This document shows, piece after piece, positions 12,906 to 56,193 of a stretch of 64,000 nucleotides of DNA. The notes beneath the pieces are model-generated. The model ran no database searches. It saw nothing but the letters and a program-made list of their open reading frames with translations, and was not told where the DNA came from. Positions within the stretch are counted from its first letter, which is position 1. Each line of letters starts with the position of its first letter. The position numbers and the translations under genes are program-made. The stretch comes from Octopus vulgaris (taxonomy: Eukaryota), in assembly GCA_951406725.2 (NCBI GenBank), contig OX597814.1:3906001-3970000 (forward strand). Direction: 5' to 3'.

Positions 12906-14520
12906 AAAATGTTCAAAACGGCATTGTTTTTGTCAGAAAAGTAGATATAAGTTTTTATTAAAGCTGTTTTATATTCTATAATTTTCACAGACAATAAATA
13001 CGATATTAATTGGTATTGTCTGAGATTTTGGTGTAATTTGAGAGGATAATACAAAAGTTATGGATGATTTAGTGATTTACTGCAAAACCCATGGCGGCCA
13101 AAATGATCAGAACGGTTGAAAAAATAACAAAATAATCAAAAATGACAGGGAATACTGGAATTATTTAATATTTAGTGTGAAGCCCTTTAGCTTCAATCAA
13201 AGTTTGACATTTTCGACTGCATGGGGAAATTAAATTTTCAATTTCTTGCTGGGTGATCATATTCCATTCTTCCTGAAGGGCATTCCATAATTGCTCGGTT
13301 GTTTTTTGGATTTCCGGCTTTCAAACGTTCTCCTAGAATATTTCACACATTTTCAATAGAATTGAGGTCTGGGCTTTGAGCTGGCCAATCCATAACAATA
13401 ACCTTTTCAGCCTTGAGGAAGTTCATGACCACCTTAGCCTTGTGACATGGGGCATTGTCCTGCATGAATATGGGTGGTCGCTTAGTTGAATTTCTCAGCA
13501 CAGGCAAGACATGATCTTTTACAAGTTGTTTATAAACTCCTGCATTTACCTTTCCATGTAATCGCACCAAAGGCCCCACAACATCTCCAGATATCATCCC
13601 CCAAACCATGACACTTCCTCCACCGAATTTAACACTGGTCTTAAGGCATTTAGGTGACAATTTTTCACCTGCTTTTCGACGAACGTACCTTTTCCCATCT
13701 GAGCCAAATAACATAGACTTAGATTCATCACTGAAATGCACCGTTTGCCATTTTTCTTGAGACCACAACACATGTTCGGTTGCAAAGGTAAGACGACACT
13801 TTTTATTCTTGAAGCTGATCAGTGGCTTTACTGCAGGTACTCTTGCTTGTAGGTCATGTTCAACTAAATGACGAGACATAGTTTTTCGAGATAAAGTTTT
13901 CTTCAATACAATGCTCATTTTCCGAGAAACAGCAGCAGCAGTTTTAAATCTGTCCTTTTTAACCAACTTTACCATAGCACAATCTTCTCTCTTGGTCGTT
14001 TTTCTTGGCCTGCCTGTAAACTTTCTTGCTTCACACGAACCACAATCATCGTAGGCCTTAAGAATACCGTGAACAACACTTTTTGACTTGTTAACAATCT
14101 TTGCAATAGATCCAATACTTAAATTACCCTTCCTTCGAAGCTTAATAATCTGCTGACGAATTGGTAACGGAGTAAGTGGCATTATATTAACAAAGTACAC
14201 TGCAGATATTCTTACTAATGTTTAGTAAACGAACTGTCACGTAAACAAATTCAAAACATTAGAGTTCGCCGGTTCAATATACTAAAACATGGAGTAAAAG
14301 CAACCGTTCCATTTTGGCCGCCATTGGTTTTGCAGTAAATCACTAAATCATCCATAACGTTTGTATTATCCTCTCAAATTACACCAAAATCTCAGACAAT
14401 AGCAATTAATATCGTATTTATTTTCTGTGAAAATTATAGAATATAAAACAACTTTGATAAAAACTTATATCTACTTTACTGACGAAAACAATGCCGTTCT
14501 GAACATTTTGGCCGCAACTG
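12906..14520 (-). mobile_element. Tc1-family DNA transposon with long IR/DR terminal repeats
   Basis: ~210-bp inverted repeats 12906-13118 and 14301-14520, each with inner and outer copies of ccgttc..attttggccgc; right end ...ggccgcaactg followed by TA. Confidence 0.92.
13165..14182 (-). pseudogene. Tc1 transposase pseudogene (DD34E)
   Basis: HTH region, GRPRK linker, FSDES, KFGGGSVMVWG, MQDNAPCH, WPAQSPDLNSIE (34 residues between D and E); premature TGA after IENV; C-terminal EAKGLHTKY* continues with frameshifts. Confidence 0.92.
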
Positions 14521-17945: not shown

Positions 17946-18388
17946 CACAGACACATGCGCACACTGACAATAGAGACTCGTGGGAAGCAAGCTGCTTACC
18001 ACACAGCCACTGCTGCGCCTATGCATATATATATATTTTATGATTTAATCTTGTATGTCTTCGGAATAACAAAGAATTGAAATGAAACAAAGTTTCATGT
18101 AGGAGAGGATTAATAAAGCTCACTGATTAGTTGTAATTAGTGGTGTTCATGCTAACTCTTGCAAGAAGCAAATCAATTTTATAAATCGTTTCCCAGTGAA
18201 GCATAACAAACCGGTTGGCTAATCCTTATTGTATTATTGAAGCTCAGATTGAAAGTTTGTTTCATGATTCGAGATACCACATCGATCTTCGATTCCCAAC
18301 ACAAACTTTTTGCTAGTTTTGAAGGAAAAACAATATTCTCTACTTTTTCTCTACATGTAATAAGCACTCACCTTCCAGAAATCAAATG

Positions 18389-18468
<80 letters not shown>

Positions 18469-19386
18469 GGGCAGGTCGGCCCCGCGGCTCGAGAAACACG
18501 TGGCCGACCTGCCCGAGATGCGGTCAGAGCGACGAAACCGTTCTGCACGCACTCGTGCAGTGTCCAACAATTTCCGACCTGTGGGCTTATGTCGAACAAC
18601 TGCTGTCACGTGTGGGACGAGTCGGTTTACCAGCTGAGTCTATCGTCAATATTGTCACGCCTCCTTCCTTCAAACGGGAAGGAAGAGCTATTTTCATCAT
18701 CCTTGTGGCTATGGCGAAAGAATGTATCTGGTGGACGCGTCTGAAAGGATTGGAGACAAACACTTTCCTCTCTGGTCAATCTCTCATCAACTTCTTCAAG
18801 TACCACTTGAAAAGGAAAGTGAGAGTAGAGAGGCAAGTTTAGTCTAGCGAATGTTTTAAAAAAAGATGGGTGAATGTAGCGAGGATGGCACGTATGAATG
18901 ACGAAGCCACCTTGAGCATAATCCTATGAACCCAGAAATTGAAAACAGAGGGTTACCCACTTGCAAACAAATGTGGTAACATATAACAATATTGACCAAG
19001 GTTACCGTGGTCTTTTTCGTAGGCTTTTCTTCCCACGGAAAAACCTTACTTGCTTTCCCCTTTACACCATATATCATAACACTGTGATACACGATTCCTA
19101 TTGATCGTTCTTTTTTCCTCTTCCCCTTTTTTCCCCCTTTTTCTCCTTTTTTCATTACTCTTTCCTTTTGTTCCTTTTCCTTTCCTTTTTTTTTCTTTTT
19201 ATTCTTTTTATTTTATTCAATTTTTTTTGTTTTTGTTCTTTTCTTCCCTTTTACGATCCCTCTTGATCGAAAACCTACGCCACCCCTTTTTTTCTTTTGT
19301 TTTTGTTCTCTTCATCCCCCAAAAGAAAAGCTCTACCTTGTAACTTGTCCATTCTGTGTGCAGCCCTGTGTGGCCAATGAAGAAAC

Positions 19387-19839: not shown

Positions 19840-20338
<499 letters not shown>

Positions 20339-20383
20339 ACACACACACACACACACACACATATATGTATATATATATATATA

Positions 20384-20487
20384 TAACAATCGTACTGACT
20401 TTCATGGGAAACATGTATTTTCGTGGTTGAAACCTTTTGGATTAACTGGTGCTAGAGTGAGCCACATAGTGACCACTCTCTTATATT

Positions 20488-20539
<52 letters not shown>

Positions 20540-21054
20540 TTAATAAGGGTGAGAGAATTAGATACTAATTTAATAGTATACCTATTCAACACCAGGTGTT
20601 GAATAGATATACTATTAAATTAGTATCTAATTCTCTCACCCTTATTAATTAATTATAATTATGCTACATTTATTTCTAAATGTAGTATTTGTTTCCGTGA
20701 AAGTTTGGTGCGCTGTTGGTTGGGGCATTTGAATTATAACGTCGGATGTAATCAATTGAACCACACGCGTATTTATCGTTATGGTAAAATCTGGCGTGTG
20801 ATTGAGTGGATTTCATCCAGATAGTTTTGGCTGAGGAGCTACAAGTGAGTTTTTTGTGAGTAAAATTACATTTAATTCATTAATAGCGAAACAATTGTCC
20901 CAAAATAATCTGTATTTTTGTTATTTTTTATTTGCCCTGTTCGTATGAGCTAACAATCGTACTGACTTTCATGGGAAACATGTATTTTTGTGGTTGAAAC
21001 CTTTTGGATTTACTAGTGCTAGAGTGAGCCACATAGTGACCACTCTCTTATATT

Positions 21055-21060
<6 letters not shown>
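20384..21060 (+). mobile_element. Non-coding Penelope-like/retrozyme-like element with direct terminal repeat, inverted 5' segment and hammerhead
   Basis: ~105-bp direct repeat 20384-20490 / 20951-21058; hairpin 20531-20657; hammerhead 20825-20905; TA flanks. Confidence 0.7.
20825..20905 (+). ncRNA. Type I hammerhead ribozyme, canonical core
   Basis: TTTTGG-CTGAGGA-GCTA..TAGC-GAAA-CAATTG-TC-CCAAAA; predicted cleavage after GUC (C20899). Confidence 0.8.
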
Positions 21061-21093
<33 letters not shown>

Positions 21094-21320
21094 CAGGGTA
21101 ATAAAGATTTTAGAAATTTTTACTACCAGTGGCCTAGCGTATATAAAAATTAAGTCAATAGACTATATATTATTCATATAAAATACAGTGTACATTTAAA
21201 CACATTAAGAGGCTTCCATCATAGGAATCCTTTACGCTAGAAAGAACAGTTAAAGTCCAAACCACTAAATAGGGATAAATTCTCGAAGGGAATGAAAACT
21301 AAAAACATTTACCATCTAAT

Positions 21321-25748: not shown

Positions 25749-25913
25749 CGCACACACACACATACATATACATATACATACACACACACACACACACACA
25801 CAAATATATATATAGTTCAGCAAAATTTAGATTCAGATGAATATGGTACTTAAGTTAAAGGCCCCAGAATTTGGTACGGTATTATCCATATAAATCAAAT
25901 GGGGTGATTATAA

Positions 25914-26003
25914 TCAAAATGAGCAACAAGGATATCCAAGGTAGTGTAGTACGGTCAAACGATTCTACTACACTGCCTTGGATATCCTTGTTGCTCACTT
26001 TGA
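25914..26003. repeat. Inverted repeat, 38-bp arms, abutting (TA)n
   Basis: tcaaaatgagcaacaaggatatccaaggtagtgtagta / tactacactgccttggatatccttgttgctcactttga. Confidence 0.9.
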
Positions 26004-26496
26004 GTATATATATATATATATATATATATATTACATTTTATAAAGGGCTTAGTAAAATAAATTACTTTGCCACATACTGAACTCATTAGAAATAGCAGCC
26101 AAAAAAAATTTTTTTAACCATTTCTAATACTTAAAGAAAAATTTCTCTCAGATAGTGTTTACTCAAAATAAATGAATTCGCCTTAAATGGTCCCTTTACA
26201 TACTGAATACTTGGTGAAATTGATTAATAATTAATTAATTTTACCCTCAATTGTTGAAATTATAATTCATTTCTCTCTGTTTATTGCTTCGGTCTTCACC
26301 GATAAAACATACTGAATACTTGGTGAAATTGATTAATAATTAATTAATTTTACCCTCAATTGTTGAAATATATATATATATATATATATATATTACAGAC
26401 CAAGTAGAAAGATATATTTTTCAACGCGTAAGTTCTCTATATGCGTAAGAAAAGCATATAGAGGATAAAATCCTGACAGAGCAGAAAAATTTGTCA

Positions 26497-26570
26497 GCAA
26501 CCAGCCATCAGAATCGAACTCACATCCCTTTAATTTCCGGTCAAAGTGCTCTACCATTAAGCTAAACTGC
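26497..26570 (-). mobile_element. tRNA-derived SINE head or tRNA pseudogene
   Basis: Minus: gcagtttagcttaatggtagagcac...gtgagttcgattct with box A and B; acceptor stem does not pair. Confidence 0.55.
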
Positions 26571-27632
26571 AATTTTAGAACTTATAAACCCATCTAGAAA
26601 AGGTAGATGTAATAAAATTTACGTCATATGTAAACAACCATAAATTTGAAAAATGTATATTTCTACTTATACCACAAATACATTTCAGCGCTTCAAAAAC
26701 AAACTTGTTTGTTTACATATGAAGTAGCATATATATGTATATATAACTAATGTAGGATAAAATTTTTTCGGGAAAAATTTTTTATCAATGGCCAGCATAT
26801 CAAAAAATACCTTTAAAGGTTAAATTTATAAAATAATTTACAAAATAAGGGCAAAAGAAAAATTCTAATGCCAAATATGCCGAAAAAAAGACAAAATTGT
26901 CAATTACCGTTATAATTTATGCGTCTCGAAACAAACCCGAAAAAAATGTTATTCTACATTAGTTATAAATTTAATAGTGTTTACTTCCGGATTCTCTCAC
27001 TCTGTGAAAGTTTCTAGTTCGAATCACACATGTCTCGAGATGTGCCGAAGATTTTCTATTTTGGATATATTTGGGGTACTTAAGTCTGCCCAGGACTTAG
27101 CTCTCTAACTTTATTATTTGTTAGTTCGCTTCTGATATCTGATGACTCAGAAACCGGTTAAACTCATTTGTGAAGAACAATTGCGGTTACATCAATGTGG
27201 ATATCTCAAATTTGTTTCCTTTACATTTCGATATTGAACTTGCTTTTGTGTGGCAACATTTTAGCACAAAATTTAAAACATTCTCCACAAGAAGTAATAT
27301 ACGACAGGCAGACGTTAACATCTTGTCTCGCATTGACATCGTAAAAACAGACATGTTTACTCTAAGCTATGCACTTGTGCGCACGCACATATCTTTACAT
27401 CCGGGAAAGGCAAAACATGTGCACACTCAAGGTTTTTAAGGTTAAAGTGAAAGTTTTAATTGAAGAATTTTAAGCAGTAACGCGCATGAATGCACCCGTG
27501 CTTTGAAAAGGACAAAATTTGCAAACGATGTAAATTATTGAGGACACCATCAACAAAAAACTGAGGGGGACATGTTATATACACACATACACACATACAC
27601 AAACACCCACACACATATCACATATACGTGTG

Positions 27633-28236: not shown

Positions 28237-29524
28237 CGAGGGGCGTTCAATAAGTAATGCCCCTGACCCACTTCCTATAGCAGTAGAGCAACGAAACTTG
28301 GCACAGTTATTAGTCTTTTTCTACATAGGAACCACCCAGAGTTACGCATTTCTACTATAGTTTGATGCAGCTCTGGAGACAGTTTTTGTAGAAGACCCCA
28401 GCTTGGTCCAACCTCAACGTGACTTCAGAAATCAAGGCTGCATCATCTGGGAAACGCTTTCCTTTCAAAAACAACTTCATGACTGGGAAGAGGTGAAAAT
28501 CAGAGGGTGCAAGGTCAGGAGAGTAGGCGAAATGGGGTAGGAGTTCATAGCCGCACGGCTGTGCTTCTGATCTGGCGACAAGCGAGTTGTGGACCGGAGC
28601 GTTGTCCTGCAGGAGGAGGATGCCTTTGTTGATCTTGCCCCGCCTCTTGATTTTGATAACTTCTCTTAATTTCCTCAAAAGTGAAGCATAATAGGCTCCT
28701 GTAATTGTGGTACCCTTTGCCAGGAAATCTGTCATCACTACTCCGTCCTGGTCCCAGAAGACTGTGAGCATGACCCTGCCAGCGGAGGGCTGCACCCTTG
28801 CCTTCTTTGGAGGGGGTGAGTCACGGTGCTTCCACTGCATTGACTTGGCTTTGGTCTCTGGATCATCGTGATGGACCCAGGTTTCATCCTGTGTAATCAG
28901 TCTTTTGAAAAATTTTGACTCATCTTCTTGGCACATCTCCAAATTCATCCTCGAGCACTCGACGCGCTCTTGCTTCTGGAAAGACGTGAGCAACCTGGGA
29001 ATCCATCTGGCAGATACCTTTTGCATATGCAAATGGTCATGAATGATAGTTTCCACAGACCCGGTACTAATCTTGACCTCATGGGCTATTTGGCGAATAA
29101 TTATGCGTCGATCTTCCAAAATGGCAGCCTCAACTTGACGGACAGATGCCTCATCAATGGCAGAAGGGGGCGACCAGATCTGGGAGCTGTTTCCACAGAG
29201 TTCCGACCATGTTTGAATTCACGATGCCAGTGTTTTACAAGGTCATATGATGGGGCATCATCACCATAAGTTACTTTCATTTCATCAAAAGTCTCCCGTG
29301 GTGTGCGTCCTTTCAAATACAAAAACCGGATCACTGCTCGACACTCAACAGGCTCCATTTCACACTTGACTCAGTTCAAACACCTGTAAATCAGAAACCA
29401 CAATTAGTTCAGAGCTGTAATTTGTCACTTACTCTATAGAGATATAAATAATTGCACATGCAAAATTTCAGCTAGGTCAAACAACTGCAAATGGGTCAGG
29501 GGCATTACTTATTGAACGTCCCTC

Positions 29525-33930: not shown

Positions 33931-34753
33931 AGGCAACACTTGTTGAACAGTAAAGAAGGAAACGAGAATATCCCTTACATGAGGAAAAGTGAGAGCAACA
34001 ACATCTTCAGAGATGGAGAAGAGCTTCTGTGCAGGCATTCCGAGAGTACAACCATCTCAAGCGGTCCAAGGGAGGCTGGACTGGCCAACATAAACAGAAG
34101 CTTGCAGGAGAAGCAGGCATCATACCAACAAGAATCAATGCATGGATATATAAACCGGAAGTTAGAGGGCAACAATAGCATTGACAGGAAGAGCAGCCTT
34201 TGCTGGACCCTTGGTAGATACATTACGTCCCACTGACAAAGGATATGCCTTCACTATCCAGGAACAAGAGACAGCTACTAGATTCCTGCTAAACAAAAGG
34301 GATAAAGATACCACCAAACCTCAACGTTGTGATAAAAAATGTCGGCTCTGCTATACCAGTGTGGAAGACATCTCCCACATCCTCAGAGGATGCCCGAAAA
34401 TGTCTGCGGGATTATACCTGCCCCTGAGGCGTGATATGATTGCAAAGATTATTTATACTGTTATCTGCAAGGACTGCCATGATGTATACATCAAAGGCAT
34501 GTTAGAACCAGCAGTTATTCACACCTTTAAAAACAAGGACTATCGATGAAACATCCCAATAAAAACATCAATTTGGTGCACACATAACAGACCCGATATT
34601 GTTCTGTTGTGAGACAGGGGTCAGCTGTCCAGCAGATGTGAATATGCAATCAAAAGTTCAGAAAAAAAGGGAACATTTATGGCAAATTAATGCGGAACTT
34701 ACAGCTCTTGTACTTTGACTATAAATTCTTATTTCTACCGATTATCGAAGGTG
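33931..34753 (+). pseudogene. C-terminal remnant of an RLE-type (R4/Dong-like) non-LTR retrotransposon
   Basis: SMHG, IQEQ, CRLCYTSVEDISHILRGC (CCHC), RRD (RHD-like), HNRPDIV and CPADVN..K..IY endonuclease motifs across frameshifts and stops. Confidence 0.8.
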
Positions 34754-41109: not shown

Positions 41110-41596
41110 TTGTATCCGTATATGTATGTGTATATATACATATACATATCTCTCTCTCTATAATATATATATATATGTATATCTATATATATGTATATAA
41201 ATATATATATGTATATATACAAATATATAAACATATATATTATATATATATATATATATATTCACATATACATTTATACATATGTATTCAGATGTATAAA
41301 TTTTATATATAAATAAATACACGCTTAAGTATTGTATGTAAGTATTTTCGTATTTGGCATGCATATATCAGCGTATGTCTATATATGTCTAGATGTAGAT
41401 ATGGGTGTATATGCTACTAACAATAACAACATCATCGGAAATTATACATACAGGAATGTAATACATCCCACTTTCCAGTCAAAATGTCTGAGGCGTATAT
41501 ACATATAAGCATCTATATAAAGGGGGGTGTACATATTTATATGCATTCGTTCATGTTTATAATGCATATACATACATATGCATGTATGTATGTGTC

Positions 41597-41800
41597 AAGG
41601 CGTGGCTCAGTGGCTAGAGTATACGGCTCAATGTCGTGATGACGCGTGCGTTCGATTCCTGGCGTCACGTCTGATCCTTGAGCAAAATATTTTATCTTAT
41701 GTTTTTCCAGCCCCAATTAGCTGGCAACAATGATTTGTAGCTTTTATTGAAGGGCCCAGCCCTGTCGCATTCTCTGCGACGCTTAATGTCCCTCAGAACC
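41597..41800 (+). mobile_element. Degenerate tRNA-derived SINE
   Basis: ggcgtggctcagtggctagagt...gttcgattcctggc...ccttgagcaa. Confidence 0.6.
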
Positions 41801-41939
41801 ATATTCTTCACAACCAATTTCAGCTGGTCTCTATCATGAGATTCTTGCCATTGAAGACTTTGCTACGCTTGACTGGACAGCTGGGAGACGGAGGGTGCCA
41901 GAAACGAGTTGCATGATGGGTAGGGTACGGCTAACCAGC

Positions 41940-44715
41940 CCAATTTACCAATTGATTGATTTCTTGACAATTTGCCAATTGATTTCTTGCCAATTTACCA
42001 GTTCATTGATTTCTTGCCAATTTACCAATTGGTTTAATGCCAATTTACTAATTGATTGATTTCTTGCCTATTTACCAATTCATTGATTTCTTCTCAATTT
42101 ACCAATTAGATTCTTGCCAATTTAGCAATTGATTTCTTGCCAATATGCCAATTCATTGATTTCTTGCCAATTTACCAATTTGTTTCTTGCCGATTTACCA
42201 AGTCATTGATTTCTACCGAATTTACCAATTGGTTTTTTCCGAATTTACTAATTGATTGAGTTCTTGCCAATTTACCAATTCATTGATTTCTTCCCAATTT
42301 ACCAATTTCTTTCTTGCCAATTTACCAATAGGTTACTTGCCAATTTACTAATTGATTGATAGCTTGCCAATTTACCAATTCATTGATTTATTCCCAATTT
42401 ACCAATTAGCTTCTTGCCAATTTACCAATTGATTTCTTGCCAATTTACATATTCATTGATAATTCCCAATTTACCAATTTAACTTGGTAATTTACCGATT
42501 AACCAATCATTAATTTCTTCCCAATTTACCAATTTGTTTCTTGCCAATTTACCAATTCATTGATATCTTCCCAATTTCCCAATTTCTTTCATGCCGATTT
42601 ACCAAGTCATTGATTTCTTCCCAATATACCAACTTGTTTCTTGACAATTTACCATTTGATTTCTTGCCGATTTACCAAGTCATTCATTTCTTGCCAATTT
42701 ACCAAGTCATTGATTTTTGCCAATTTACCAATTCATTGATTTCTTGCCAATTTACTAATTTGATTGATTTTTGCCAATTTACCAAGTCATTGATTTTTGC
42801 CAATTTACCAAGTCATTGATTTCTTGCAAATTTACCAAGTCATTAATTTTTGCCACTTTACAAAGTCATTGATTTTTGCCAATATACCAAGTTATTGATT
42901 TTTGCCAAATTAGTTTCAAGCCAATTTACTAACTTCATTGATTTTTGCCAATTTAGCAAGTCATTGATTTCTTGCTAGTCTAACAAATCATTGATTTTTG
43001 TCAATTTACCAAATCATTGATTTTTGCCAAATTACCAACTCATTGATTTTTGCCAATTTACAAATTAGTTTCCTGCCAAGTTACTAATTCATTGATTCTT
43101 GCCAATTTACCAAGTCCTATATTTTGCCAATTTACCAAGTCATTGATTTTTGCCAATTTACCAAGTCATTGATTTCTTGCCAATTTACCAAGTCATTGAT
43201 TTCTTGCCAATTTACCAAATCATTGATTTCTTGCCAATTTACCAAGTCATTGATTTCTGCCAATATACCAATTAGTTTCCTGCCAATTTACTAATTAATT
43301 AATTCTTGCCAATTTACCGAGTCATTGATGTTTGCCAATTTACCAAGTCATTGATTTATGCCAATTTACCAAATCATTGATTTCTTGCCAATTTACCAAT
43401 TCATTGATTGCTTGCCAATTTACGAATTAGTTTCTAGCCAATTGACTAATACATTGATTCTTGCCAATTTACCAACTCTTTGATTTTTGCCAATTTAAGA
43501 GTCATAGATATCTTGCCAATTTACCAAGTCATTAATTTTTGCCAATTTACCAAGTCATTGATTTTTGCCAATTTACCAATTAGTTTCCCGCCAATTTACT
43601 AATTAATCGATTCTTGCCAATTTACCAACTCATTGATGTTCGCCAATTTACCAAATCATTGATTTATGCGAATTTACCAAATCATTCATTTCTTGCCAAT
43701 TTACCAATTAGTTTCTTGCCAATTTACTACTAAGTCATTGATTTTTGCCAATTTATCAAGTCATTGATTTCTTGCCAATTTACCAAGTCATTGATTTCTA
43801 GCCAATTTACCAAGTCATTGATTTTTGCCAATTTACAAAGTCATTGATTTTTGCCAAATTACCAAGTCATTGATTTCTTGCCAATTTACCAAGTCATTGA
43901 TTTTTGCCAATTTACCAAGTCATTGATTTCTTGCCAATTTACCAAGTCATTGATTTATGCCAATTTACCAAATCATTGATTTCTTGCCAATTTACCAATT
44001 CATTGATTGCTTGCCAATTTACGAATTAGTTTCTAGCCAATTGACTAATACATTGATTCTTGCCAATTTACCAACTCTTTGATTTTTGCCAATTTAAGAG
44101 TCATAGATATCTTGCCAATTTACCAAGTCATTAATTTTTGCCAATTTACCAAGTCATTGATTTTTGCCAATTTACCAATTAGTTTCCCGCCAATTTACTA
44201 ATTAATCGATTCTTGCCAATTTACCAACTCATTGATGTTCGCCAATTTACCAAATCATTGATTTATGCGAATTTACCAAATCATTCATTTCTTGCCAATT
44301 TACCAATTAGTTTCTTGCCAATTTACTACTAAGTCATTGATTTTTGCCAATTTATCAAGTCATTGATTTCTTGCCAATTTACCAAGTCATTGATTTCTAG
44401 CCAATTTACCAAGTCATTGATTTTTGCCAATTTACAAAGTCATTGATTTTTGCCAAATTACCAAGTCATTGATTTCTTGCCAATTTACCAAGTCATTGAT
44501 TTTTGCCAATTTACCAAGTCATTGATTTCTTGCCAATTTACCAAGTCATTGATGTTTGCCAATTTACCAAGTCAATGATTTCTAGCCAATTTACCAAGTC
44601 ATTCATTTTTGCCAATTTACAAAGTCATTGATTTGTTGCCAATTTAACAAGGCATTGATTTTTGCCAATTTAGCAAGGCATTGGTTTCTTGTCAATTTAC
44701 CAATTCATTGATTTC
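41940..44715 (+). repeat. 26/27-bp satellite, left block (TTGCCAATTTACCAAGTCATTGATTTC)
   Basis: Tandem array with a 599-bp higher-order duplication near 43330-44530. Confidence 0.95.
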
Positions 44716-45907
44716 AGAGATCAAAGAGGGTACCGACAGAGATAAAAAAGACGGTGCCGACAGAGATCAAAGAGCGAGCCGACAAAGATTAAAGAGGAAT
44801 GCTGACATAGATCAAAGAGGGTACCGACAGAGAGCAAAGACGGTGCCGAAAGAGATCAAAGACGGTGCCGACAGAGATCAAAGATGGTGCCGACAGAGAT
44901 CAAGGACAGTACCGAAAGAGATCAAAGAGGAGTGTTGACAGATATCAATGTGGGTACCGACAGAGATCAAAGAAGTTGCCGACAGGGATCAAAGTAGGTG
45001 CCGACAGAGATAAAAGACGGTGCCGACAGAGATCAAAGAGCGAGTCGACAAAGATTAAAGAGGAATGCTGACATAGATCAAAGAGGGTACCGACAGAGAG
45101 CAAAGACGGTGCCGAAAGAGATCAAAGACGGTGCCGACAGAGATCAAAGATGGTGCCGACAGAGATCAAGGACAGTACCGAAAGAGATCAAAGAGGAGTG
45201 TTGACAGATATCAATGTGGGTACCGACAGAGATCAAAGAAGTTGCCGACAGGGATCAAAGTAGGTGCCGACAGAGATCAAAGTAGATGCCGATAAAGATC
45301 AAAGAGTGAGCCGACAGAGATTAAAGAGCCTGCCGATAGAGATCAAAGAGCGTGCCAACAGAGATAAAAGAACGTGCAAACAGATCAAAGAGCATGCCGA
45401 CAGAAATGAAAGGCGGTGCCGAAAGAGATCAAAGAGGGTGCCGAAAGAGATCAAAGAGGGTGCCGAAAGAGATCAAAGAGGGTGCCGAAAGAGATCAAAG
45501 AGGAGTGTTGACAGAGATCAAAGAGGGTTGTTGACAGAGTTCAAAGAGCGTGCCGACAGAAATGAAAGGCGGTGCCGAAAGAGATCAAAGAAGGTGCCGA
45601 AAGAGATCAAAGAGGGTGCCGAAAGAGATCAAAGAGGGTGCCGAAAGAGATCAAAGAGGGTGCCGAAAGAGATCAAAGAGGAGTGTTGACAGAGATCAAA
45701 GAGGGTTGTTGACAGAGTTCAAAGAGCGTGCCGACAGAGATCAAGGAGCGTGCCGACAGAGATCAAAGACGGTGCAGAAAGAGATCAAAGAGGGTCACGA
45801 AAGATATCAAAGAGGGTACCGACAGAGATCAAAAAGCGTGCCGACAGAGCTCAAAGAGGAGTGCCGACATAGATTAAAGAGGATAGTCGACAGAGATCAA
45901 AGAGGGT
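44716..45907 (+). repeat. 22-bp satellite, forward arm (GACAGAGATCAAAGAGGGTGCC)
   Basis: Tandem array; 266-bp higher-order repeat (44781 vs 45047). Confidence 0.95.
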
Positions 45908-45928
45908 CCTGACATTCCTGACACTCCA

Positions 45929-48378
45929 GACACTCCTCTTTAATCTCTGTCGGCTCGCTCTTTGATCTCTGTCGGCACCCTCTTTGATATCTGTCGACAC
46001 CCTCTTTGATCTCTGTCGGCACCATCTTTGATCTCTTTCGGCACCCTCTTTGATCTCTGTCGGCACCCTCTTTGATCTCTGTCGGCACCCTCTTTGATCT
46101 CTGTCGGCACCCTCTTTGATCTCTGTCGACACCCTCTTTGATCTCTGTCGGCAGCCTCTTCGATCTATGTCGGCACCCTCTTCGATCTATGTCGGCACCC
46201 TCTTTGATCTCTGTCGGCACCCTATTTTATCTCTGTCGGCACCCTCTTTGATCTCTGTCGGCACCCTCTTTGATATCTGTCGGCACCCTCTTTGATCTTT
46301 GTCGGCACCCTCTTTGATCTATGTCGACACCCTCTTCGATCTCTGCCAACAGCCTCTTCGATCTCTGTCGGCACCCTATTTGATCTCTGTCGGCACCCTC
46401 TTTGGTCTCTGTCGGCACCCTCTTTGATCTCTGTCGGCACCCTCTTTGATCTCTGTCGACACCCTCTTCGATCTCTGTCGTCACCCTCTTTGATCTCTGT
46501 CGGCACCCTCTTTGATCTCTGTCGGCACCCTCTTTGATCTTTGTCGGCACACTCTTTGATCTCTGTTGGCACTTCTCTTTAATCTCTTTCGGCTCGCTCA
46601 TTGATCTCTTTCGGCACCCTCTTTGATCTCTGTCGACACTCCTCTTTGATCTCTGTCGGCACCATCTTTGATCTCTGTCGGCTCGCTCTCTGATCTCTGT
46701 CGGCACCATCTTTGATCTCTGTGGCTCGCTCTTTGATCTCTGTCGGTACCCTCTTTGATCTCTTTCAGCACCCTATTTGATTTCTGTCGGCACCCTCTTT
46801 GATCTCTGTCGGCACCCACTTTCATCTCTGTCGATACCCTCTTTGATCTCTGTCGGCACTCTCATTAATCTCTTTCGGCACCCTCTTTGATCTCTGTCGG
46901 CACTCCTCTTTGATCTCTGTCGGCACCCTATTTGATCTCTGTCGGCACCCTCTTTGATCTCTGTCGACACCCTCTTTGATCTCTGTCGACACCCTCTTTG
47001 ATCTCTTTCGGCACGCTCTTTGATCTCTGTCGGCACTCCTCTTTAATCTATGTCGGCTCGCTCTTTGATGTCTGGCGGTACCCTCTTTGATCTCTGTCGA
47101 CACCCTCTTCAATCTCTGTCGGCACCCTCTTTGATCTCTGTCGGCACCATCTTTGATCTCTGTCGGCTCGCTCTTTGACCTCTGTCGGTACCCTCTTTGA
47201 TCTCTTTCAGCACCCTATTTGATCTCTGTCGGCACCCTCTTTGATCTCTGTCGGCACTCCTCTTTGATCTCTGTCAGCACCCTATTTGATCTCTGTCGGC
47301 ACCCTCTTTGATCTCTGTCGACACCCTCTTTGATCTCTGTCGACACCCTCTTTGATCTCTTTCGGCACGCTCTTTGATCTCTGTCGGCACTCCTCTTTAA
47401 TCTATGTCGGCTCGCTCTTTGATCTCTGGCGGTACCCTCTTTGATCTCTGTCGACACCCTCTTCAATCCCTGTCGGCACCCTCTTTGATCTATCTCGACA
47501 CTCCTCTTTAATCTCTGTCGGCTCGCTCTTTGATCTCTGTCGACACGCTATTTGATCTCTGTCGGCACCCTCTTTGATCTCTGTCGACACTCCTCTTTGA
47601 TCTCTGTCGGCTCGCTCTTTGATCACTGTCGGCACTCTCACTAATCTCTTTCGGCACCCTATTTGATCTCTGTCGGCTCGCTCTTTGATCTCTGTCGGCA
47701 CCCTATTTGATCTCTGTCGGCACCGTCTTTGATCTCTGTCGGCACCCACTTTGATCTCTGTCGGCACTCCTCTTTAATCTATGTCGGCTCGCTCTTTGAT
47801 CTCTGTCGGCACCCTCTTTGATCTCTGTCGGCACCCTCTTTGATCTCTGTCGGCTCGCTCTTTGATCTCTGTCGACACTCCTCTTTGATCTCTTTCGGCA
47901 CCCTCTTTGATTTCTGTCGGCACCCTCTTTGATCTCTGTCGGCACTCTCATTAATCTCTTTCGGCACCCTCTTTGATCTCGCTCATTGATCTTTGGAATA
48001 TCAGGAATGTCGGGAATTTCTGCAATGTCTGGAATTTCTAGAATGCCAAGAATGTCTGGAACTCTTTGAACTCTTTCGGCACCGTCTTTGATCTCTGTCG
48101 GCACCCTCTTAGATCTCTGTCGACTTTTTGATCTATGTCGGCACCCTCTTTGATTTCCGTCGGCAGGCTCTTTGACATCTTTTGCCGCCCTCTTTGATCT
48201 CTCTCGGCACCCTCTTTGATCACTGTCGGCACGATCTTTGATCTCTTTTAGCACCGTCTTTGATCTCTGTCAACACCCTCTTTGATCTCTGTCGGCAGTA
48301 TTTTTGATCTCTGACGACCCCCTCCTTGATCTCTGTCGGCACTCCTCTTTGACCTCTGACGGAACGCTCTTTGATCTC
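45929..48378 (-). repeat. 22-bp satellite, inverted arm, with internal 9-bp block at 47995-48062
   Basis: ggcaccctctttgatctctgtc tandem array, the reverse complement of the forward arm. Confidence 0.95.
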
Positions 48379-48601
48379 GGGAATATCAGGAATGTCGGGA
48401 ATGTCTGCAATGTTTGGAATGTCAGGAATATCATGAATGTCTGGAATGTCTGGAATGTCTGGAAAGTCAGGAATGTCATGAATGTCATAAATGTTTTGAA
48501 TGTCAGGGATGTAGAGAATGTCTGGAATGTCTGGTATGTCGGGGATGTCTGGAATGTCTGGTATGTCGGGGATGTCTGGAATGTCTGGTATGTCGGGAAT
48601 G
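48379..48601 (-). repeat. 9-bp minisatellite (GGAATGTCT)n
   Basis: ggaatgtct/ggaatgtca/ggtatgtcg variants. Confidence 0.92.
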
Positions 48602-51600
48602 CTAATTTACCACGTCATTGATTTCTTGCCAATTTACCAAGTCATTGATTTTTGCCAATTTACCAAGTTATTGATTTCTTGCCAATTTACCAAGTCATTC
48701 ATTTTTGCCAATTTACCATGTCACTGATTTTTGCCAATTTACCAAGTCATTGATTTCTCGTCACTTTACTAATTCATTGAATTCTTACCAATTTCATAAT
48801 TGATTTGTTGTAGATTTATCAATTCATTGATTTCTTTCCAATTTGCCAATTGGTTTCTTGCCAATTTACTAATTGATTAATTTTTTTCCAATTTACCAAT
48901 TCATTGATGTCTCCCAATTTACCAAGTCATTGATATCTTGTCAATTTACCAAGTCATTGATTTCTTGCCAATTTACCAAGTCTTTGGTTTTTGCCAATTT
49001 ACCAAATAGTTTCCTGCCAATTTACTAATTCATTGCTTCTTGCCAATTTACCAAGTCACTGATTTCTTGTCAAATTACCAAGTTATTGATTTCTTGCCAA
49101 TTTACCACGTCATTGATTTTTTGCCAATTTACCAAGTCATTGAATTTTTGCCAATTTATCAAGTCATTGATTTCTTGCCAATTTACCAAGTCATTGATTT
49201 TTGCCAATTTACCAAGTCATTGATTTCTTGCCAATTTACCTATTCATTGACTTCATCTCAATTTCCCAATTGATTTCTTGCCGATTTACCAATTCATTGT
49301 TTCTTCCCAATTTATCAATTGGTTACTTGCCATTTGACAATTTGATTAATTATTGCCAATTTCTAAAGTCATTGATACTTGCAACTTTACCAAGTCTCAT
49401 CCTTATTGAACATGTTCCCTAACATCATTCTCTCTCTCCCACCCTCTCGCTTTCTTTCTTTCTCTCTCTCTTCCATCCCATCTTCGGTCTCTAACTTCCC
49501 TACACATACTCTCACCTTGTCAATTTACCAAGTCATTGATTTCCGCAAAATTACCAAGTCATTGATTTTTGCCAATTTACCAAGTCATTGATTTCATGAC
49601 AATTTACCAAATCATTGATTTCTTGCAAATTTACCAATTCATATCTTGCCAATTTACCAAATCATTGATTTTTGCCAATTTGCCAATTAGTTTCCTGCCA
49701 ATTTACTAATTCATTGATTCTTACAAATTTGCCAAGTCATTGATATTTGCCAATTTACCAGGTCATTGATTTTTGCCAATTTTACAAGTCATTTCTTGCC
49801 AATTTACCAAGTCATTGATTTCTTGCCAATTTACCAAGTCATTGATTTTTGCCAATTTACTAAGTCATTCATTTCTTGCCAATTTACCTAGTCATTGATT
49901 TTTGCCATTTTACCAAGTCATTGATTTCTTTTCAATTTACAAATTCATTGATTTCTTCCCAATTTCGTAATTGATTTTTTTTTGGGATTTACCAATTCAT
50001 TAATTTCTTCCCAATTTACCAATTGGTTTCTTTCCAATATACTAACTGATTGATTTTTGCTCTCTTTCCAATTCATTGATGTTTGCCAATTTACGAGGTC
50101 ATTGGTATCTTGCCAATTTACCAACTCATTAATTTTTGCCAATTAACCAAGTCATTAATTTTTGCCATTTTACCAATTAGTTTCAAGCCAATTCACTAAT
50201 TCATTAATTCTTGCCAATTCACCAAGTCATTGATTTTTACCAATTTGCCAATTCATTGATTTTTGCCATTTTACCAAGTCCTTGTTTTCTTGCCAATATA
50301 CCAAGTCATTGATTTCTTGCCAATTTACCAAGTCATATATTTTTGCCAATTTACCAAGTCATATATTGTTGCCTGTTTACCAAGTCATTGATTTTTGCCA
50401 ATTTACCAAGTCATTGATTTCTTGCCAATTTACCAAGTCATATATTTTTGCCAATTTACCAAGTCATATATTTTTGCCTATTTACCAAGTCATTGATTTT
50501 TGCCAATTTACCAAGTCATTGATTTCTTGCCAATTTCCCAAGTCATTGATCTTTGCCAATTTCCCAAGTTATTGATTTCTTGCCAATTTAGCGAGTCATT
50601 GATTTCTTCCCAATTTACCAATTGATATCTTCCCAGTTTACCAAGTAATTAATTTTGCCAATTTACCAAGTCATTGATTTTTACCAATTTATCAATTATC
50701 CTTCCAATTTATTAATTCATTGATTCTTGCCAATTTACCAAGTCATTGATATTTGCCAATTCACCAAGTCATTAATTTTTACCAATTCACCAAGTCATTG
50801 ATTTTGCCAATTTACCAAGTCATTGATTTCTTGCCACTTTACCAAGTCATATATTTTTGCCAATTTACCAACTCATATATTTTTATCTATTTACCAATTC
50901 ATTGATTTTTGCCAATTTACCAAGTCATTGATTTCTTGCCAATTTGCCAAGTCATTGATTTTTGCCAATTTCCGAAGTTATTGATTTTTTGCCAATTTAC
51001 CAAGTCATTGATTTCTTGCCAATTTACCAATTCATTGATTTCTTCCCAATTTACCAATTGATATCTTCCCAATTTACCAAGTCATTACTTTTTTGCCAAT
51101 TTACCAAGTCATTGATTTTTAGCAATTTATCAATTATTATCCTTCCAAATTCATTGATTCTTGCCAATTTACCAAGTCATTGATTTTTGCCAATTTACCA
51201 AGTCATTGATTTTTGCCAATTAGTTTCATGCCAATTTAATAATTCATTGATTTTTGCAAATTTGCCAAGTCTTTGATTTTTGCCAATTTTACAAGTCATT
51301 GATTTTTGCCAATTTACCAAGTCATTGCTTGTTGCCAATTTATCAAATATTATCCTTCCAATTTATTAATTCATTGATTCTTGCCAATTTACCAAGTCAT
51401 TGATTTTTGCCAATTTACAAAGTCATTGATTTTTGCCAATTTAGCAGGTCATTTAATTCTTGTCAATTTACCAATTCATGGAATTGCCAATTTACCAATT
51501 CATTCATTTCTTCCCAATTTACCAATCGATATCTTGCCGATTTACCAATTCATTGATTTTTCCCAATTTACCAATTGGTTTCTTGCCAATTTACTAAATG

Positions 51601-54600
51601 ATTGATTTTTGCCAATTTAACAAGTCATTGATTTCTTGCCAATTTACCAAATCATTGATTTTTGCCAATTTAGCAAGTCATTTATTTCTTGTCAATTTAC
51701 CAATTCATGGAATTGCCAATTTACCAATTCATTGATTTCTTCCCAATTTACCAATTGATTTCTTGCCGATTTACCAATTCCTTGATTTTTCCCAATTTAC
51801 CAATTGGTTTCTTGCCAATTTACTAATTGATTGATTTTTGCCAATTTAACAAGTCATTGATTTCTTGCCAATTTAACAAATCATTGATTTTTGCCAATTT
51901 ACCAAGTCATTAATTTTTGCCAATTTACCAAGTCATTGATTTCTTGCAAATTTACCAAGTCTTTGATTTTTGCCAATTTACCAAGTCATTGATATCTTGC
52001 CAATTTACCAATTCATGATTTCTTCCCAATTTACCAATAGGTTTCTTGCCAATTTACTAAATAATTATGTTTGCCAATTTACCAATTCATTGATGTTTGC
52101 CAGTTTACTAAGTCATTAATATCTTGCCAATTCATCAAGTCATTGATTTCTTCCCAATTTCCCAATTCATTTCTTGCCGATTTACTGATTGATTGATTTT
52201 TGCCAATTTTCCAAGTCATTGATATCTTGCCAATTTACTAATTAATTGATTCTTGTCAATTCACCAAGTCATTGATTTTTGCCAATTTACCAAGTCATTG
52301 ATTTCTCGCCAATTTACCAATTAGTTTCCTGCCAATTTACCAATTAATTTTTTTGCCAATTTACTAATTAATTGATTCTTGCCAATTTAGCAAATCATTG
52401 ATGTTTGCCAATTTAACAAGTCATTGATTTTTGCCAAGTTACCATTTCATTCATATCTTGCCAATTTCCCAACTGATTTCTTGCCGATTTACCATCGATT
52501 TCTTCCCAATTTATCAATTGATTTCTTGCCAATTTACCAAGTCACTGAATTTTTTCCAATTTACCAAGTCATTGATATCTTGCCAATTTACCAAGTCATT
52601 GATTTCTTGCCAATTTACCAATTAATTGATTTCTTCCAAATTTCCCAATTGATTTCTTGCGGATATACCAATTCATTGATTTCTTCCCAATTTACCAGTT
52701 GGTTTCTTGCCAATTTACCAAGTCATTGATTTTTCCCAATTTACCAATTAGTTTCTTGCCAATTTACTAATTGATTGATTTTTGCCGATTTACCAATTCA
52801 TTGATTTCTTCCCAATTTACCAATTGGTTTCTTGCTAATTGATTGATTCTTGCCAATTTACCGAGTCATTGATGTTTGCCAGTTTACCAATTCGTATATT
52901 TCTTCCTTCTTGCCAATTTACCAAGTAATTAATTTTTGCCAATTTAACAATTCATTGATTTTTGCCAATTTACCAAGTCATTGTTTTCTTGCCAATTTAC
53001 CAATTCATTGATTTCTTCCCTATTTTCCAATTGATTTCTTGCCGATTTACCAATTGCTTGATTTTTCCCAATTTACCAATTGGTTTCTTGCCAATTTACT
53101 AATTGATTGATTTTTGCCAATTTAACAAGTCATTGATTTTTGCCAATTTACCAAATCATTGATTTTTGCCAATTTACCAAGTCATTAATTTTTGCCAATT
53201 TGCCAATTTGCCAATTTGCCAATTTGCCATTGATTTCTTGCAAATTTACCAAGTCTTTGATTTTTGCCAATTTACCAAGTCATTGATATCTTGCCAATTT
53301 ACCAATTCATGATTTCTTCCCAATTTACCAATAGGTTTCTAGCCAATTTACTAAATGATTATGTTTGCCAATTTACCAATTCATTGATGTTTGCCAGTTT
53401 AATAAGTCATTGATATCCTGCCAATTCATCAAGTCATTGATTTCTTCCCAATTTCCCAATTCATTTCTTGCCGATTTACTGATTGATTGATTTTTGCCAA
53501 TTTACCAAGTCATTGATATCTTGCCAATTTACCAAGTCATTGTTTTCTTGCCAATTTACCAATTCATTGATTTCTTCCCAATTTACCAATTGATTTCTTG
53601 CCGATTTACCAATTCCTTGATTTTTCCCAATTTACCAATTGGTTTCTTGCCAATTTACTAATTGATTGATTTTTGCCAATTTAACAAGTCATTGATTTCT
53701 TGCCAATTCATCAAGTCATTGATTTCTTCCCAATTTCCCAATTCATTTCTTGCCGATTTACTGATTGATTGATTTTTGCCAATTTTCCAAGTCATTGATA
53801 TCTTGCCAATTTACTAATTAATTGATTCTTGTCAATTCACCAAGTCATTGATTTTTGCCAATTTACCAAGTCATTGATTTCTCGCCAATTTACCAATTTC
53901 CTGCCAATTTACCAATTAATTTTTTTGCCAATTTACTAATTAATTGATTCTTGCCAATTTAGCAAATCATTGATGTTTGCCAATTTAACAAGTCATTGAT
54001 TTTTGCCAAGTTACCATTTCATTCATATCTTGCCAATTTCCCAACTGATTTCTTGCCGATTTACCATCGATTTCTTCCCAATTTATCAATTGATTTCTTG
54101 CCAATTTACCAAGTCACTGAATTTTTTCCAATTTACCAAGTCATTGATATCTTGCCAATTTACCAAGTCATTGATTTCTTGCCAATTTACAAATTAATTG
54201 ATTTCTTCCAAATTTCCCAATTGATTTCTTGCGGATATACCAATTCATTGATTTCTTCCCAATTTTCCAGTTGGTTTCTTGCCAATTTACCAAGTCATTG
54301 ATTTTTTCCCAATTTACCAATTAGTTTCTTGCCAATTTACTAATTGATTGATTTTTGCCGATTTACCAATTCATTGATTTCTTCCCAATTTACCAATTGG
54401 TTTCTTGCTAATTTACTAATTGATTGATTCTTGCCAATTTACCAAGTCATTGATGTTTGCCAGTTTACCAATTCATATATTTCTTCCCTCTTGCCAATTT
54501 ACCAAGTAATTAATTTTTGCCAATTTACCAATTCATTGATTTTTGCCAATTTACCAAGTCATTGTTTTCTTGCCAATTTACCAATTCATTGATTTCTTCC

Positions 54601-56093
54601 CAATTTACCAATTGATTTCTTGCCGATTTACCAATTCCTTGATTTTTCCCAATTTACCAATTGGTTTCTTGCCAATTTACTAATTGATTGATTTTTGCCA
54701 ATTTAACAAGTCATTGATTTTTGCCAATTTAACAAATCATTGATTTTTGCCAATTTACCAAGTCATTAATTTTTGCCAATTTGCCAATTTGCCAATTTGC
54801 CATTGATTTCTTGCAAATTTACCAAGTCTTTGATTTTTGCCAATTTACCAAGTCATTGATATCTTGCCAATTTACCAATTCATGATTTCTTCCCAATTTA
54901 CCAATAGGTTTCTTGCCAATTTACTAAATGATTATGTTTGCCAATTTACCAATTCATTGATGTTTGCCAGTTTACTAAGTCATTGATATCTTGCCAATTC
55001 ATCAAGTCATTGATTTCTTCCCAATTTCCCAATTCATTTCTTGCCGATTTACTGATTGATTGATTTTTGCCAATTTACCAAGTCATTGATATCTTGCCAA
55101 TTTACCAATTCATTGATGTTTGCCAGTTTACTAAGTCATTGATATCTTGCCAATTCATCAAGTCATTGATTTCTTCCCAATTTCCCAATTCATTTCTTGC
55201 CGATTTACTGATTGATTGATTTTTGCCAATTTACCAATTCATTGATTTTTGCCAATTTACCAAGTCATTGTTTTCTTGCCAATTTACCAATTCATTGATT
55301 TCTTCCCAATTTACCAATTGATTTCTTGCCGATTTACCAATTCCTTGATTTTTCCCAATTTACCAATTGGTTTCTTGCCAATTTACTGATTGATTGATTT
55401 TTGCCAATTTAACAAATCATTGATTTTTGCCAATTTACCATGTCATTAATTTTTGCCAATTTGCCAATTTGCCAATTTTCATTGATTGCTTGCAAATTTA
55501 CCAAATCTTTGATTTTTGCCAATTTACCAATCATTGATATCTTGCCAATTTACCAATTCATGATTTCTTCCCAATTTACCAATAGGTTTCTTGCCAATTT
55601 ACTAAATGATTATGTTTGCCAATTTACCAATTCATTGATGTGTGCCAGTTTACTAAGTCATTGATATCTTGCCAATTCATCAAGTCATTGATTTCTTCCC
55701 AATTTCCCAATTCATTTCTTGCCGATTTACTGATTGATTGATTCTTGTCAATTCACCAAGTCATTGATTTTTGCCAATTTACCAAGTCATTGATTTCTCG
55801 CCAATTTACCAATTAGTTTCCTGCCAATTTACCAATTAATTTTTTGCCAATTTACTAATTAATTGATTCTTGCCAATTTAGCAAATCATTGATGTTTGCC
55901 AATTTAACAAGTCATTGATTTTTGCCAAGTTACCATTTCATTCATATCTTGCCAATTTCCCAACTGATTTCTTGCCGATTTACCATCGATTTCTTCCCAA
56001 TTTATCAATTGATTTCTTGCCAATTTACCAGGTCACTGACTTTTTTCCAATTTACCAAGTCATTGATATCTTGTCAATTTACCAAGTCATTGA
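48601..56093 (+). repeat. 26/27-bp satellite, right block, running into an assembly gap
   Basis: Same monomer and orientation as 41940-44715; diagnostic segment recurs at 52424, 53996 and 55915. Confidence 0.95.
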
Positions 56094-56193
56094 NNNNNNN
56101 NNNNNNNNNNNNNNNNNNNNNNNNNNNNNNNNNNNNNNNNNNNNNNNNNNNNNNNNNNNNNNNNNNNNNNNNNNNNNNNNNNNNNNNNNNNNN
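56094..56193. other. Assembly gap (100 N)
   Basis: Run of N; round length suggests unknown true size. Confidence 0.99.

Follow-up and report, generated by a model that had tools for sequence, protein, structure and literature searches.

The window, a 64,000 nt stretch of DNA analysed as a whole, contains at positions 20531-21055 a 525 bp insert that is, in our judgement, probably a retrozyme-like element of the non-autonomous kind, for which a Penelope-like element (PLE) acting in trans would have provided the reverse transcriptase and GIY-YIG endonuclease that copied it into (TA)n tracts. In favour of the PLE link are the insertion at (TA)n, the inversion of the 5' segment, the stubs truncated at their 5' ends, the absence of an ORF and the presence of a type I hammerhead.

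The insert opens with an inverted head, the left arm of which (20531-20593, minus strand) is the reverse complement of the right arm (20595-20657, plus strand), the latter being the 5' end of the direct copy. On the plus strand there follow a small hairpin with a predicted 12 bp stem (20661-20688), a Y-shaped self-paired core (20689-20982) that includes the type I hammerhead (20818-20912), and a 3' region (20951-21055) with a weak terminal stem-loop, which adjoins the (TA)n tract of the right flank (21056-21090). To the left, a (TA)n tract (20489-20530) separates this full copy from a 5'-truncated stub (20384-20488, plus strand) corresponding to the last 105 bp of the family, and the stub is preceded by a (CA)n(TA)n tract (20341-20383). 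An older repeat outside the element (19940-20340, plus strand, by blastn), presumably a SINE and presumably of octopus affiliation, provided the insertion site with its (CA)n/(TA)n tail. Within the window blastn matches it 16 times, once to itself and otherwise at 69-83% identity. With the same program no further copies of the element were found in the 64 kb window, only the two repeats and the hairpin. A structured fragment (21094-21240, z about -3 to -4) lies immediately after the right (TA)n flank, and the (TA)n tract seems to collect insertions.

At least half of 32 sampled words from the element were present in 20 of the 24 sequencing runs listed, which come from 11 studies and carry 6 organism labels. 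In all four of the 20 runs that were examined, each of the 29 bins of 20595-21058 was covered, the right arm of the head included. The contigs over this unit number 2179 in run X5, 305 in run X6, and 18 and 19 in the other two, and no contig spans it entirely. From these matches we take the element to be one copy of an abundant dispersed family, and the contig counts point to a high copy number; depth totals over the contigs, which reach 1.4 million in X5, are not convertible to copy number. None of the runs with the element is listed as RNA; X10 and X19 are only guessed to be RNA and serve as sequence evidence, not as evidence of transcription. The joints and loose ends described below are mostly single contigs placed at 80% likeness. 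Across the unit, 30 of 464 sites are variable at 5% or more. Loose ends in X5 and X6 at 20722, 20807 and 20944 mark a diverged subfamily, about 85-90% alike, which has the core in common and different sequence after 20944; this suggests that 3' ends are exchangeable. One low-depth X10 contig (record 8) has the last 112 bp only (20947-21058, with 18 differences) behind unrelated GC-rich sequence, and is a candidate for another element with a common 3' end, perhaps a helper.

The first-pass annotation had reported a 105 bp segment repeated 567 bp apart, and the repeat is present: 20384-20488 and 20951-21055 are identical at 102 of 105 bases. The identity extends 2 bases into the TA tract, and each copy terminates in (TA)n, so that both copies in the window share an identical end. 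Comparison within the window places the three mismatches at 20422/20989, 20444/21011 and 20448/21015. At each of them the letter of the stub is a listed family variant, accounting for 54%, 95% and 77% of depth in X5 and for 0%, 93% and 11% in X6. Only 10 sites within the 105 bp are variable in the family, and random decay after a single duplication would rarely strike them three times out of three; since all three differences fall on family-polymorphic sites, the stub and the full copy derive from different templates. The upstream repeat is best read as a 5'-truncated stub, left either by a second 5'-truncated insertion into the same (TA)n tract or as part of a 1.2-mer from a heterogeneous tandem. 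A target-site duplication was rejected as the source of the direct repeat, as the repeat is the element's own 3' end and its copies carry different family alleles; no target-site duplication is readable inside (TA)n.

Further 3' stubs, each beginning after TA- or AT-rich DNA, start at about 20966 (X10) and about 20989 (X6), one contig each. Together with the stub starting at 20951 here, the family thus has 5'-truncated copies with a common 3' end at AT-rich or (TA)n targets, in single contigs of two runs besides this locus. A common 3' end combined with variable 5' ends is a mark of target-primed reverse transcription. Both ends that adjoin (TA)n, 20640-20657 and 21041-21057, have a stem-loop followed by a pyrimidine-rich run ending in CTTAT, possibly a shared priming signal.

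The repeat also bears on another origin, in which the insert is the solo offspring of a classical non-LTR retrozyme with tandem units of about 339 nt (20702-21040) elsewhere, whose hammerhead-cut monomers circularise and serve as circles for transposition. One X10 contig does jump from 21040 to 20702 (28 of 30 letters match 20702-20731), which implies a 339 nt unit with a GC content of 36% and, as a circle, a predicted 67% of its bases paired, and which makes 21040, 15 nt before 21055, a candidate alternative 3' end. In size such a unit comes near the mussel retrozymes, which have 350-390 bp, and it falls within a range of 170-400 nt (PMC7229834). However, the jump occurs in a single contig at a 4 nt GTGA microhomology, and a 339 nt circle, having neither the last 15 nt nor the head (20531-20701), cannot template this copy. 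A monomeric circle of 567 nt read 1.2 times was likewise rejected, as it would yield identical repeats, yet there are three family-polymorphic differences. With a sole hammerhead at the locus as well, we hold this origin to be quite improbable.

The hammerhead, described in the first-pass annotation as canonical, deserves the term as far as the core, helix I and helix III are concerned, whereas helix II is longer than usual. The core comprises CUGAGGA (20831-20837), GAAA (20888-20891), ACAAUUGU (20891-20898) and a GUC ending at C20899, which agrees with the type I arrangement of CUGANGA...GAAA and an NUH triplet in a three-helix junction open at helix I. Cleavage is predicted 3' of C20899 (position 17). 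Helix I, thought to be 6 bp, has 7 bp including one G-U pair (20824-20830/20900-20906), and continues after an A/A mismatch with 4-5 bp more (20818-20822/20908-20912). What had been taken for a long loop II is instead a series of stacked helices of 4, 8 and 5 bp with pair probabilities of 0.91-1.0. Helix II (20838-20887) is thus branched and 17 bp in total, with 4 basal pairs starting from G10.1-C11.1 and 13 pairs beyond them. Helix III (20891-20892/20897-20898) has 2 bp and an AAUU loop within the palindrome ACAAUUGU, which can pair with a second copy to form a predicted 8 bp duplex of -6.4 kcal/mol. Canonical sizes are about 6 bp for helix I, 4 bp with G10.1-C11.1 for helix II, and 1-2 bp with a palindromic loop for helix III (PMC4209133), and the 7 bp, the 4 basal bp and the 2 bp with AAUU found here correspond to them. 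At the usual distance of the loop 1-loop 2 contact, helix I offers the A/A mismatch alone and helix II a 2x2 internal loop.

A descriptor of the full core with at least 6, 4 and 1 bp in helices I, II and III, defined after the motif had been seen, matched once in the real window versus 0 times in 400 block-shuffled windows. The fold of 20810-20915 has a z of -4.35, equalled by 0 of 200 shuffles. Rfam hammerhead families left the element unmatched at every threshold tried, which the long helix II may explain; for the whole window, nearly all of the best 150 of 336 Rfam matches are miRNA models on microsatellites. The Rfam result, together with the proneness of hairpins and microsatellites to misassembly, is what could be said for a chance hammerhead motif or for a hairpin and repeat produced by assembly. 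Against this, the descriptor found nothing in the shuffled windows, the arms and repeats carry mismatches, those of the repeats being real family alleles, and head, core and 3' end recur in four of four runs. We consider such an artefact extremely improbable.

The active hammerhead fold lies 2.7 kcal/mol above the MFE, and the helix III pair probability in the monomer is 0.01; by this folding model, cutting would probably be better if two copies paired by way of their palindromic helix III. With its last base at 20912, the hammerhead lies outside the direct repeat, which begins at 20951. The locus has one hammerhead, where retrozymes are defined by two or more successive units that each carry a complete hammerhead, and because of this single hammerhead it could not release a circle by itself. 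In public collections, the exact 23 nt motif had 0 matches among metagenome, genome and viral contigs. A looser hammerhead pattern was found at 4 metagenome, 0 viral and 2 genome loci, all six of which were rejected as chance matches, having a high GC content (56-71%) and no similarity to the element; two of the six are identical. Within the window, CUGAUGA...GAAA strings at 27139-27171 (plus) and 61418-61380 (minus) were rejected as intact ribozymes, being without helix I and folding no better than shuffles; palindromes follow both, and they are possibly decayed PLE hammerheads. Separately, one X10 contig (depth 11.8) departs behind 20964 into a second hammerhead-like core, CTGATGA...GAAA, of which 30 of 92 letters are seen.

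The hammerhead is one arm of a larger predicted fold. At 20689-20982 the plus strand forms a Y (MFE -99.8 kcal/mol) made of a base stem, about 20691-20743 with 20913-20980, a first arm at 20744-20819 and the hammerhead as the second arm. Compared with 150 dinucleotide shuffles, this region has a z of -7.9 on the plus strand versus -4.1 on the minus strand, and the hammerhead arm alone -3.4 versus -0.3. Because of these stronger plus-strand values, and because 17 of the 109 pairs in the fold of 20689-20982 are G-U, the folding model predicts the plus strand RNA to be the structured strand. The remainder of the 3' region (20983-21055, z -0.6) folds no better than its shuffles. The core, about 300-340 nt with a GC content of 32-36%, is strongly self-paired and leaves the hammerhead free to fold. 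It agrees with retrozymes in having no ORF, no LTR and apparently no PBS or PPT, in a GC content below 50%, in a length of 150-450 bp and in self-pairing, although the 525 bp insert as a whole exceeds that range.

In the hammerhead core, variation among the copies of the family is limited to the free position N7 (20835), which is G here and C in most or many other copies; with 12 core positions and 30 of 464 sites variable, hand arithmetic puts the chance expectation of an invariant core at about 45%, so this alone is not significant. From the 18 variants in 20689-20982, 4 transversions were set aside, including one at paired site 20850 that is confounded with an indel. Ten of the 14 transitions fall at paired sites and keep the pair in 9 of 10 cases versus 58% expected (P=0.034), whereas in a folding-energy test the mean cost of the 14 is not significantly below random (P=0.14). 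The near-fixed family allele 20709C disrupts a base-stem pair at a cost of +4.2 kcal/mol. A lack of compensatory changes among copies, which the first-pass annotation had named as part of what would refute the ribozyme, is neither borne out nor clearly overturned. The sole two-sided change, A20666-U20683 to G-C, lies in the small hairpin alone, where the neighbouring 20684 carries a pair-breaking change. The changes in helix II keep their pairs yet are one-sided, and among family variants in the runs examined none is two-sided in the hammerhead helices.

The hairpin at the left end, noted earlier as having 63 bp arms and a 1 nt loop, is confirmed at 20531-20657 with its centre at A20594 and 62 of 63 pairs formed, the sole mismatch being C20581/A20607. 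The inverted arm duplicates the 5' 63 bp of the element, not a terminal repeat. An inverted segment at the 5' junction is present in other copies too: one X10 contig passes from 20657 into (TA)n, like the left arm at this locus, and an opposite-strand joint with an AT overlap links head arm 20614-20616 to body 20775-20777 in one contig each of X5 and X6. Two origins can account for this joint: an inverted insertion truncated at another point, or a deletion that later passed through the palindrome. One rearranged copy in X5 has the core cut at 20888, nine letters matching 20960-20968, and a jump back to the head arm at 20634. In record 1 of X10 and record 9 of X19, 48 letters beyond 20595 are unseen, so an upstream ORF in other copies is possible.

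How fixed the hairpin centre is across the family constitutes the main uncertainty between a non-autonomous element and an alternative that we regard as unlikely, although less so than the others considered here. According to this alternative, the insert is the dead-end 3' tail (pLTR/UTR) of an autonomous PLE; each copy would be 5'-truncated afresh, the head would be built at insertion, and the 525 bp form would never have been mobile as a unit. It is in keeping with the variable 5' truncations, the inversion joint at a second position and the unseen letters beyond 20595, as well as with the reading of most single hammerheads in animal genomes as truncated PLEs (PMC4209133). It fits poorly, however, with 461 nt that hold no ORF remnant, with coverage that is undiminished toward 20595, with an arm that in another run, too, gives way to (TA)n after 20657, and with a core that closes as a self-contained fold. 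In addition, metazoan PLE hammerheads are mostly minimal in the same source, whereas the one here has helix III and the G10.1-C11.1 start. The head-plus-core unit, with its near-perfect 63 bp duplex and (TA)n spacer, could instead be a fixed master element that has risen to copy numbers like those of SINEs in several related species, yields through hammerhead processing an abundant viroid-like RNA of about 340 or 570 nt and is moved by PLE enzymes; we put this forward tentatively, with about one chance in its favour for several against.

The reported absence of an ORF holds, the longest stop-free frame in 20531-21055 having 66 codons, and the two 66 aa frames have no Pfam match. None of 147 window frames (17 plus 130 of 174 filtered frames) matches a PLE-type reverse transcriptase or GIY-YIG endonuclease, so a helper PLE was not found in the window. 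A simple consensus scan found no Pol III A or B box on the plus strand of the element, and there is no tRNA match within it. The insert could also be imagined as a DNA element of the MITE or Helentron kind that is non-autonomous, targets (TA)n, is palindromic at one end and bears a hammerhead that was captured and is now passive. The long 5' palindrome, the small 3' hairpin, the TA-rich site and the high copy number are as such an element would have them, but by blastn no terminal inverted repeat links the two ends, the stubs are 5'-truncated with a common 3' end, and the fold is strand-biased and rich in G-U pairs. We rate a DNA element as very unlikely.

Around the element, the window consists of animal DNA rich in repeats, among them remnants of Tc1 and mariner, and small matches to zf-RVT occur as well. 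By profile and homologue search, the stretches 13346-14221 (minus), 28358-29370 (minus), 18207-18842 (plus) and 34166-34549 (plus) hold a frame for Tc1 transposase (292 aa; 82% identity with its best relative), pieces of mariner transposase and two zf-RVT matches, both weak. At 20-215 a (TA)n-flanked hairpin (161 bp, 94% self-complementary) runs into about 33 nt of single-copy sequence and from there into (TA)n, and looks like a minimal PLE insertion with a tail. The minus strand of 25815-26008 has the layout of the element studied and an unrelated sequence: (TA)n, a hairpin head (25909-26008), a body of about 100 nt and TA-rich DNA. A 67 bp direct repeat (26198-26264 and 26307-26374, 98.5%), its copies 42 nt apart and ending in (TA)n, is possibly a partial tandem of another family. 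ARAGORN reports imperfect tRNA-like sequences at 26499-26571 (minus, Ser-GGA) and 41596-41671 (plus, Leu-CAA), likely SINE heads or pseudogenes, and 26395-26800 folds at a z of -3 to -4. Tandem arrays with a strong skew between the strands fill about 14 kb from 41939 to 56090; in them the blocks 41939-44714 and 44715-47118 abut at a sharp boundary, the second being self-inverted; a gap of 100 N lies at 56094-56193.

For the retrozyme-like element moved in trans, we propose the following course. A source locus would be transcribed by read-through or as a tandem, and the plus strand RNA would fold as the Y with the hammerhead as one arm. The PLE protein would nick (TA)n and prime cDNA near 21055; by analogy with the anole system (PMC11167929), the 3' region 20951-21055 is likely the start of reverse transcription. 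Synthesis of cDNA would often halt early and leave stubs such as 20384-20488. The inverted head could arise through fold-back or second-strand priming, or could already have been fixed in the source copy. As the insert is continuous across the cut site C20899, the template RNA would have been uncut or rejoined, and the hammerhead would have its role in processing multimeric transcripts, not in the insertion step. In agreement with this, the anole PLE protein, which nicks AT-rich DNA and extends both strands, has uncut RNA as its main substrate, and the hammerhead is dispensable in vitro (PMC11167929). Partial tandems, inverted 5' copies and a (TA)n bias are PLE marks (PMC8557442), and pLTR sequences suffice for mobilisation in trans (PMC3846280). 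Retrozymes have been proposed as PLE derivatives with dispersed monomers, and of nine predicted Xenopus retrozyme dimers only one cut in vitro (10.64898/2026.07.22.740005).

The general link between retrozymes and Penelope is already published. In the same preprint, the case for PLEs as retrozyme helpers rests on co-occurrence and pLTR similarity, and the mechanism of mobilisation is described as still to be shown. What is new here is the form: dispersed, headed by a hairpin, targeted to (TA)n and equipped with a long helix II. The element does not constitute a new class, and no sign of a host function was seen. Young and abundant, with a hammerhead, PLE-type scars and no ORF, the family offers many insertions from which target choice, priming site and head origin can be read, supplies a compact 460 nt template for an in vitro PLE assay, and adds a hammerhead form missed by Rfam. 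Should the fixed-master reading be true, the family would represent an animal retrozyme that is dispersed and capped by a hairpin, its insertion scars linking the movement of retrozymes directly with the PLE machinery; if the octopus source is right, it would also be the first such cephalopod family in the literature searched. That literature holds no description of the family, though the supplements of PMC7229834 or 10.64898/2026.07.22.740005, or Repbase/Dfam, may list it. The nearest item concerns giant squid, for which 235 matches to the Rfam model hammerhead_1 were counted (PMC6962438).

Among known systems, the animal non-LTR retrozymes (PMC7229834; 10.64898/2026.07.22.740005) resemble the element in having no ORF, a GC content of 32-36% and a self-paired core of about 300-340 nt, and in a type I hammerhead with a 2 bp helix III and a palindromic tetraloop. 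Dispersed monomers are described for them, and PLEs are proposed as their helpers. They differ in that the element here has one hammerhead and no tandem array, and in helix II, branched and 17 bp in the element versus 4 bp plus a loop in theirs. The 127 bp palindromic head and the (TA)n site are not seen for animal retrozymes in the accessible text of these sources; the four invertebrates included in the 2026 preprint were three insects and one anthozoan. The Schistosoma and newt hammerhead repeats, SINE-like or satellite (PMC6765202), are alike in being short and non-coding with a type I hammerhead, but the element has no Pol III A or B box on its plus strand, no tRNA match and no satellite at its locus.

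The insertion units of EN+ PLEs (Penelope/Poseidon and Neptune; PMC8557442, PMC3846280, PMC11167929) share with the element the inverted segment at the 5' junction, the look of a partial tandem, 5' truncation, the AT-rich or (TA)n target and a hammerhead of type I lying some 150 nt before the 3' end. The first-pass annotation had likened the locus to a PLE pseudo-LTR architecture, a reading that holds in part: the PLE-type site, the inverted 5' segment and the stubs support a link to PLEs. The comparison breaks down elsewhere: the hammerhead, typically within the pLTRs of PLEs (PMC8557442), is here non-minimal and not part of the direct repeat, what the inverted arm mirrors is the 5' 63 bp, not a terminal repeat, and the two repeats are separated by (TA)n and come from different templates. 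For an optional tail of 30-40 bp, not clear in the element, the one candidate is the alternative end at 21040, and the element is without the ORF for a telomerase-like reverse transcriptase and GIY-YIG endonuclease that an autonomous EN+ PLE has. MRC1 of Chlamydomonas is similarly ORF-less with pLTR-like repeats, and is thought to borrow PLE enzymes through a common 3' end; most Chlamys elements, unlike the one described here, are without canonical hammerheads, and their 3' match to an autonomous family has been seen (PMC8557442). Because the locus has no tandem of hammerheads and departs from the pLTR pattern on two counts, we file the element with neither the retrozymes nor the PLEs, yet it works like a retrozyme-type, non-autonomous PLE derivative.
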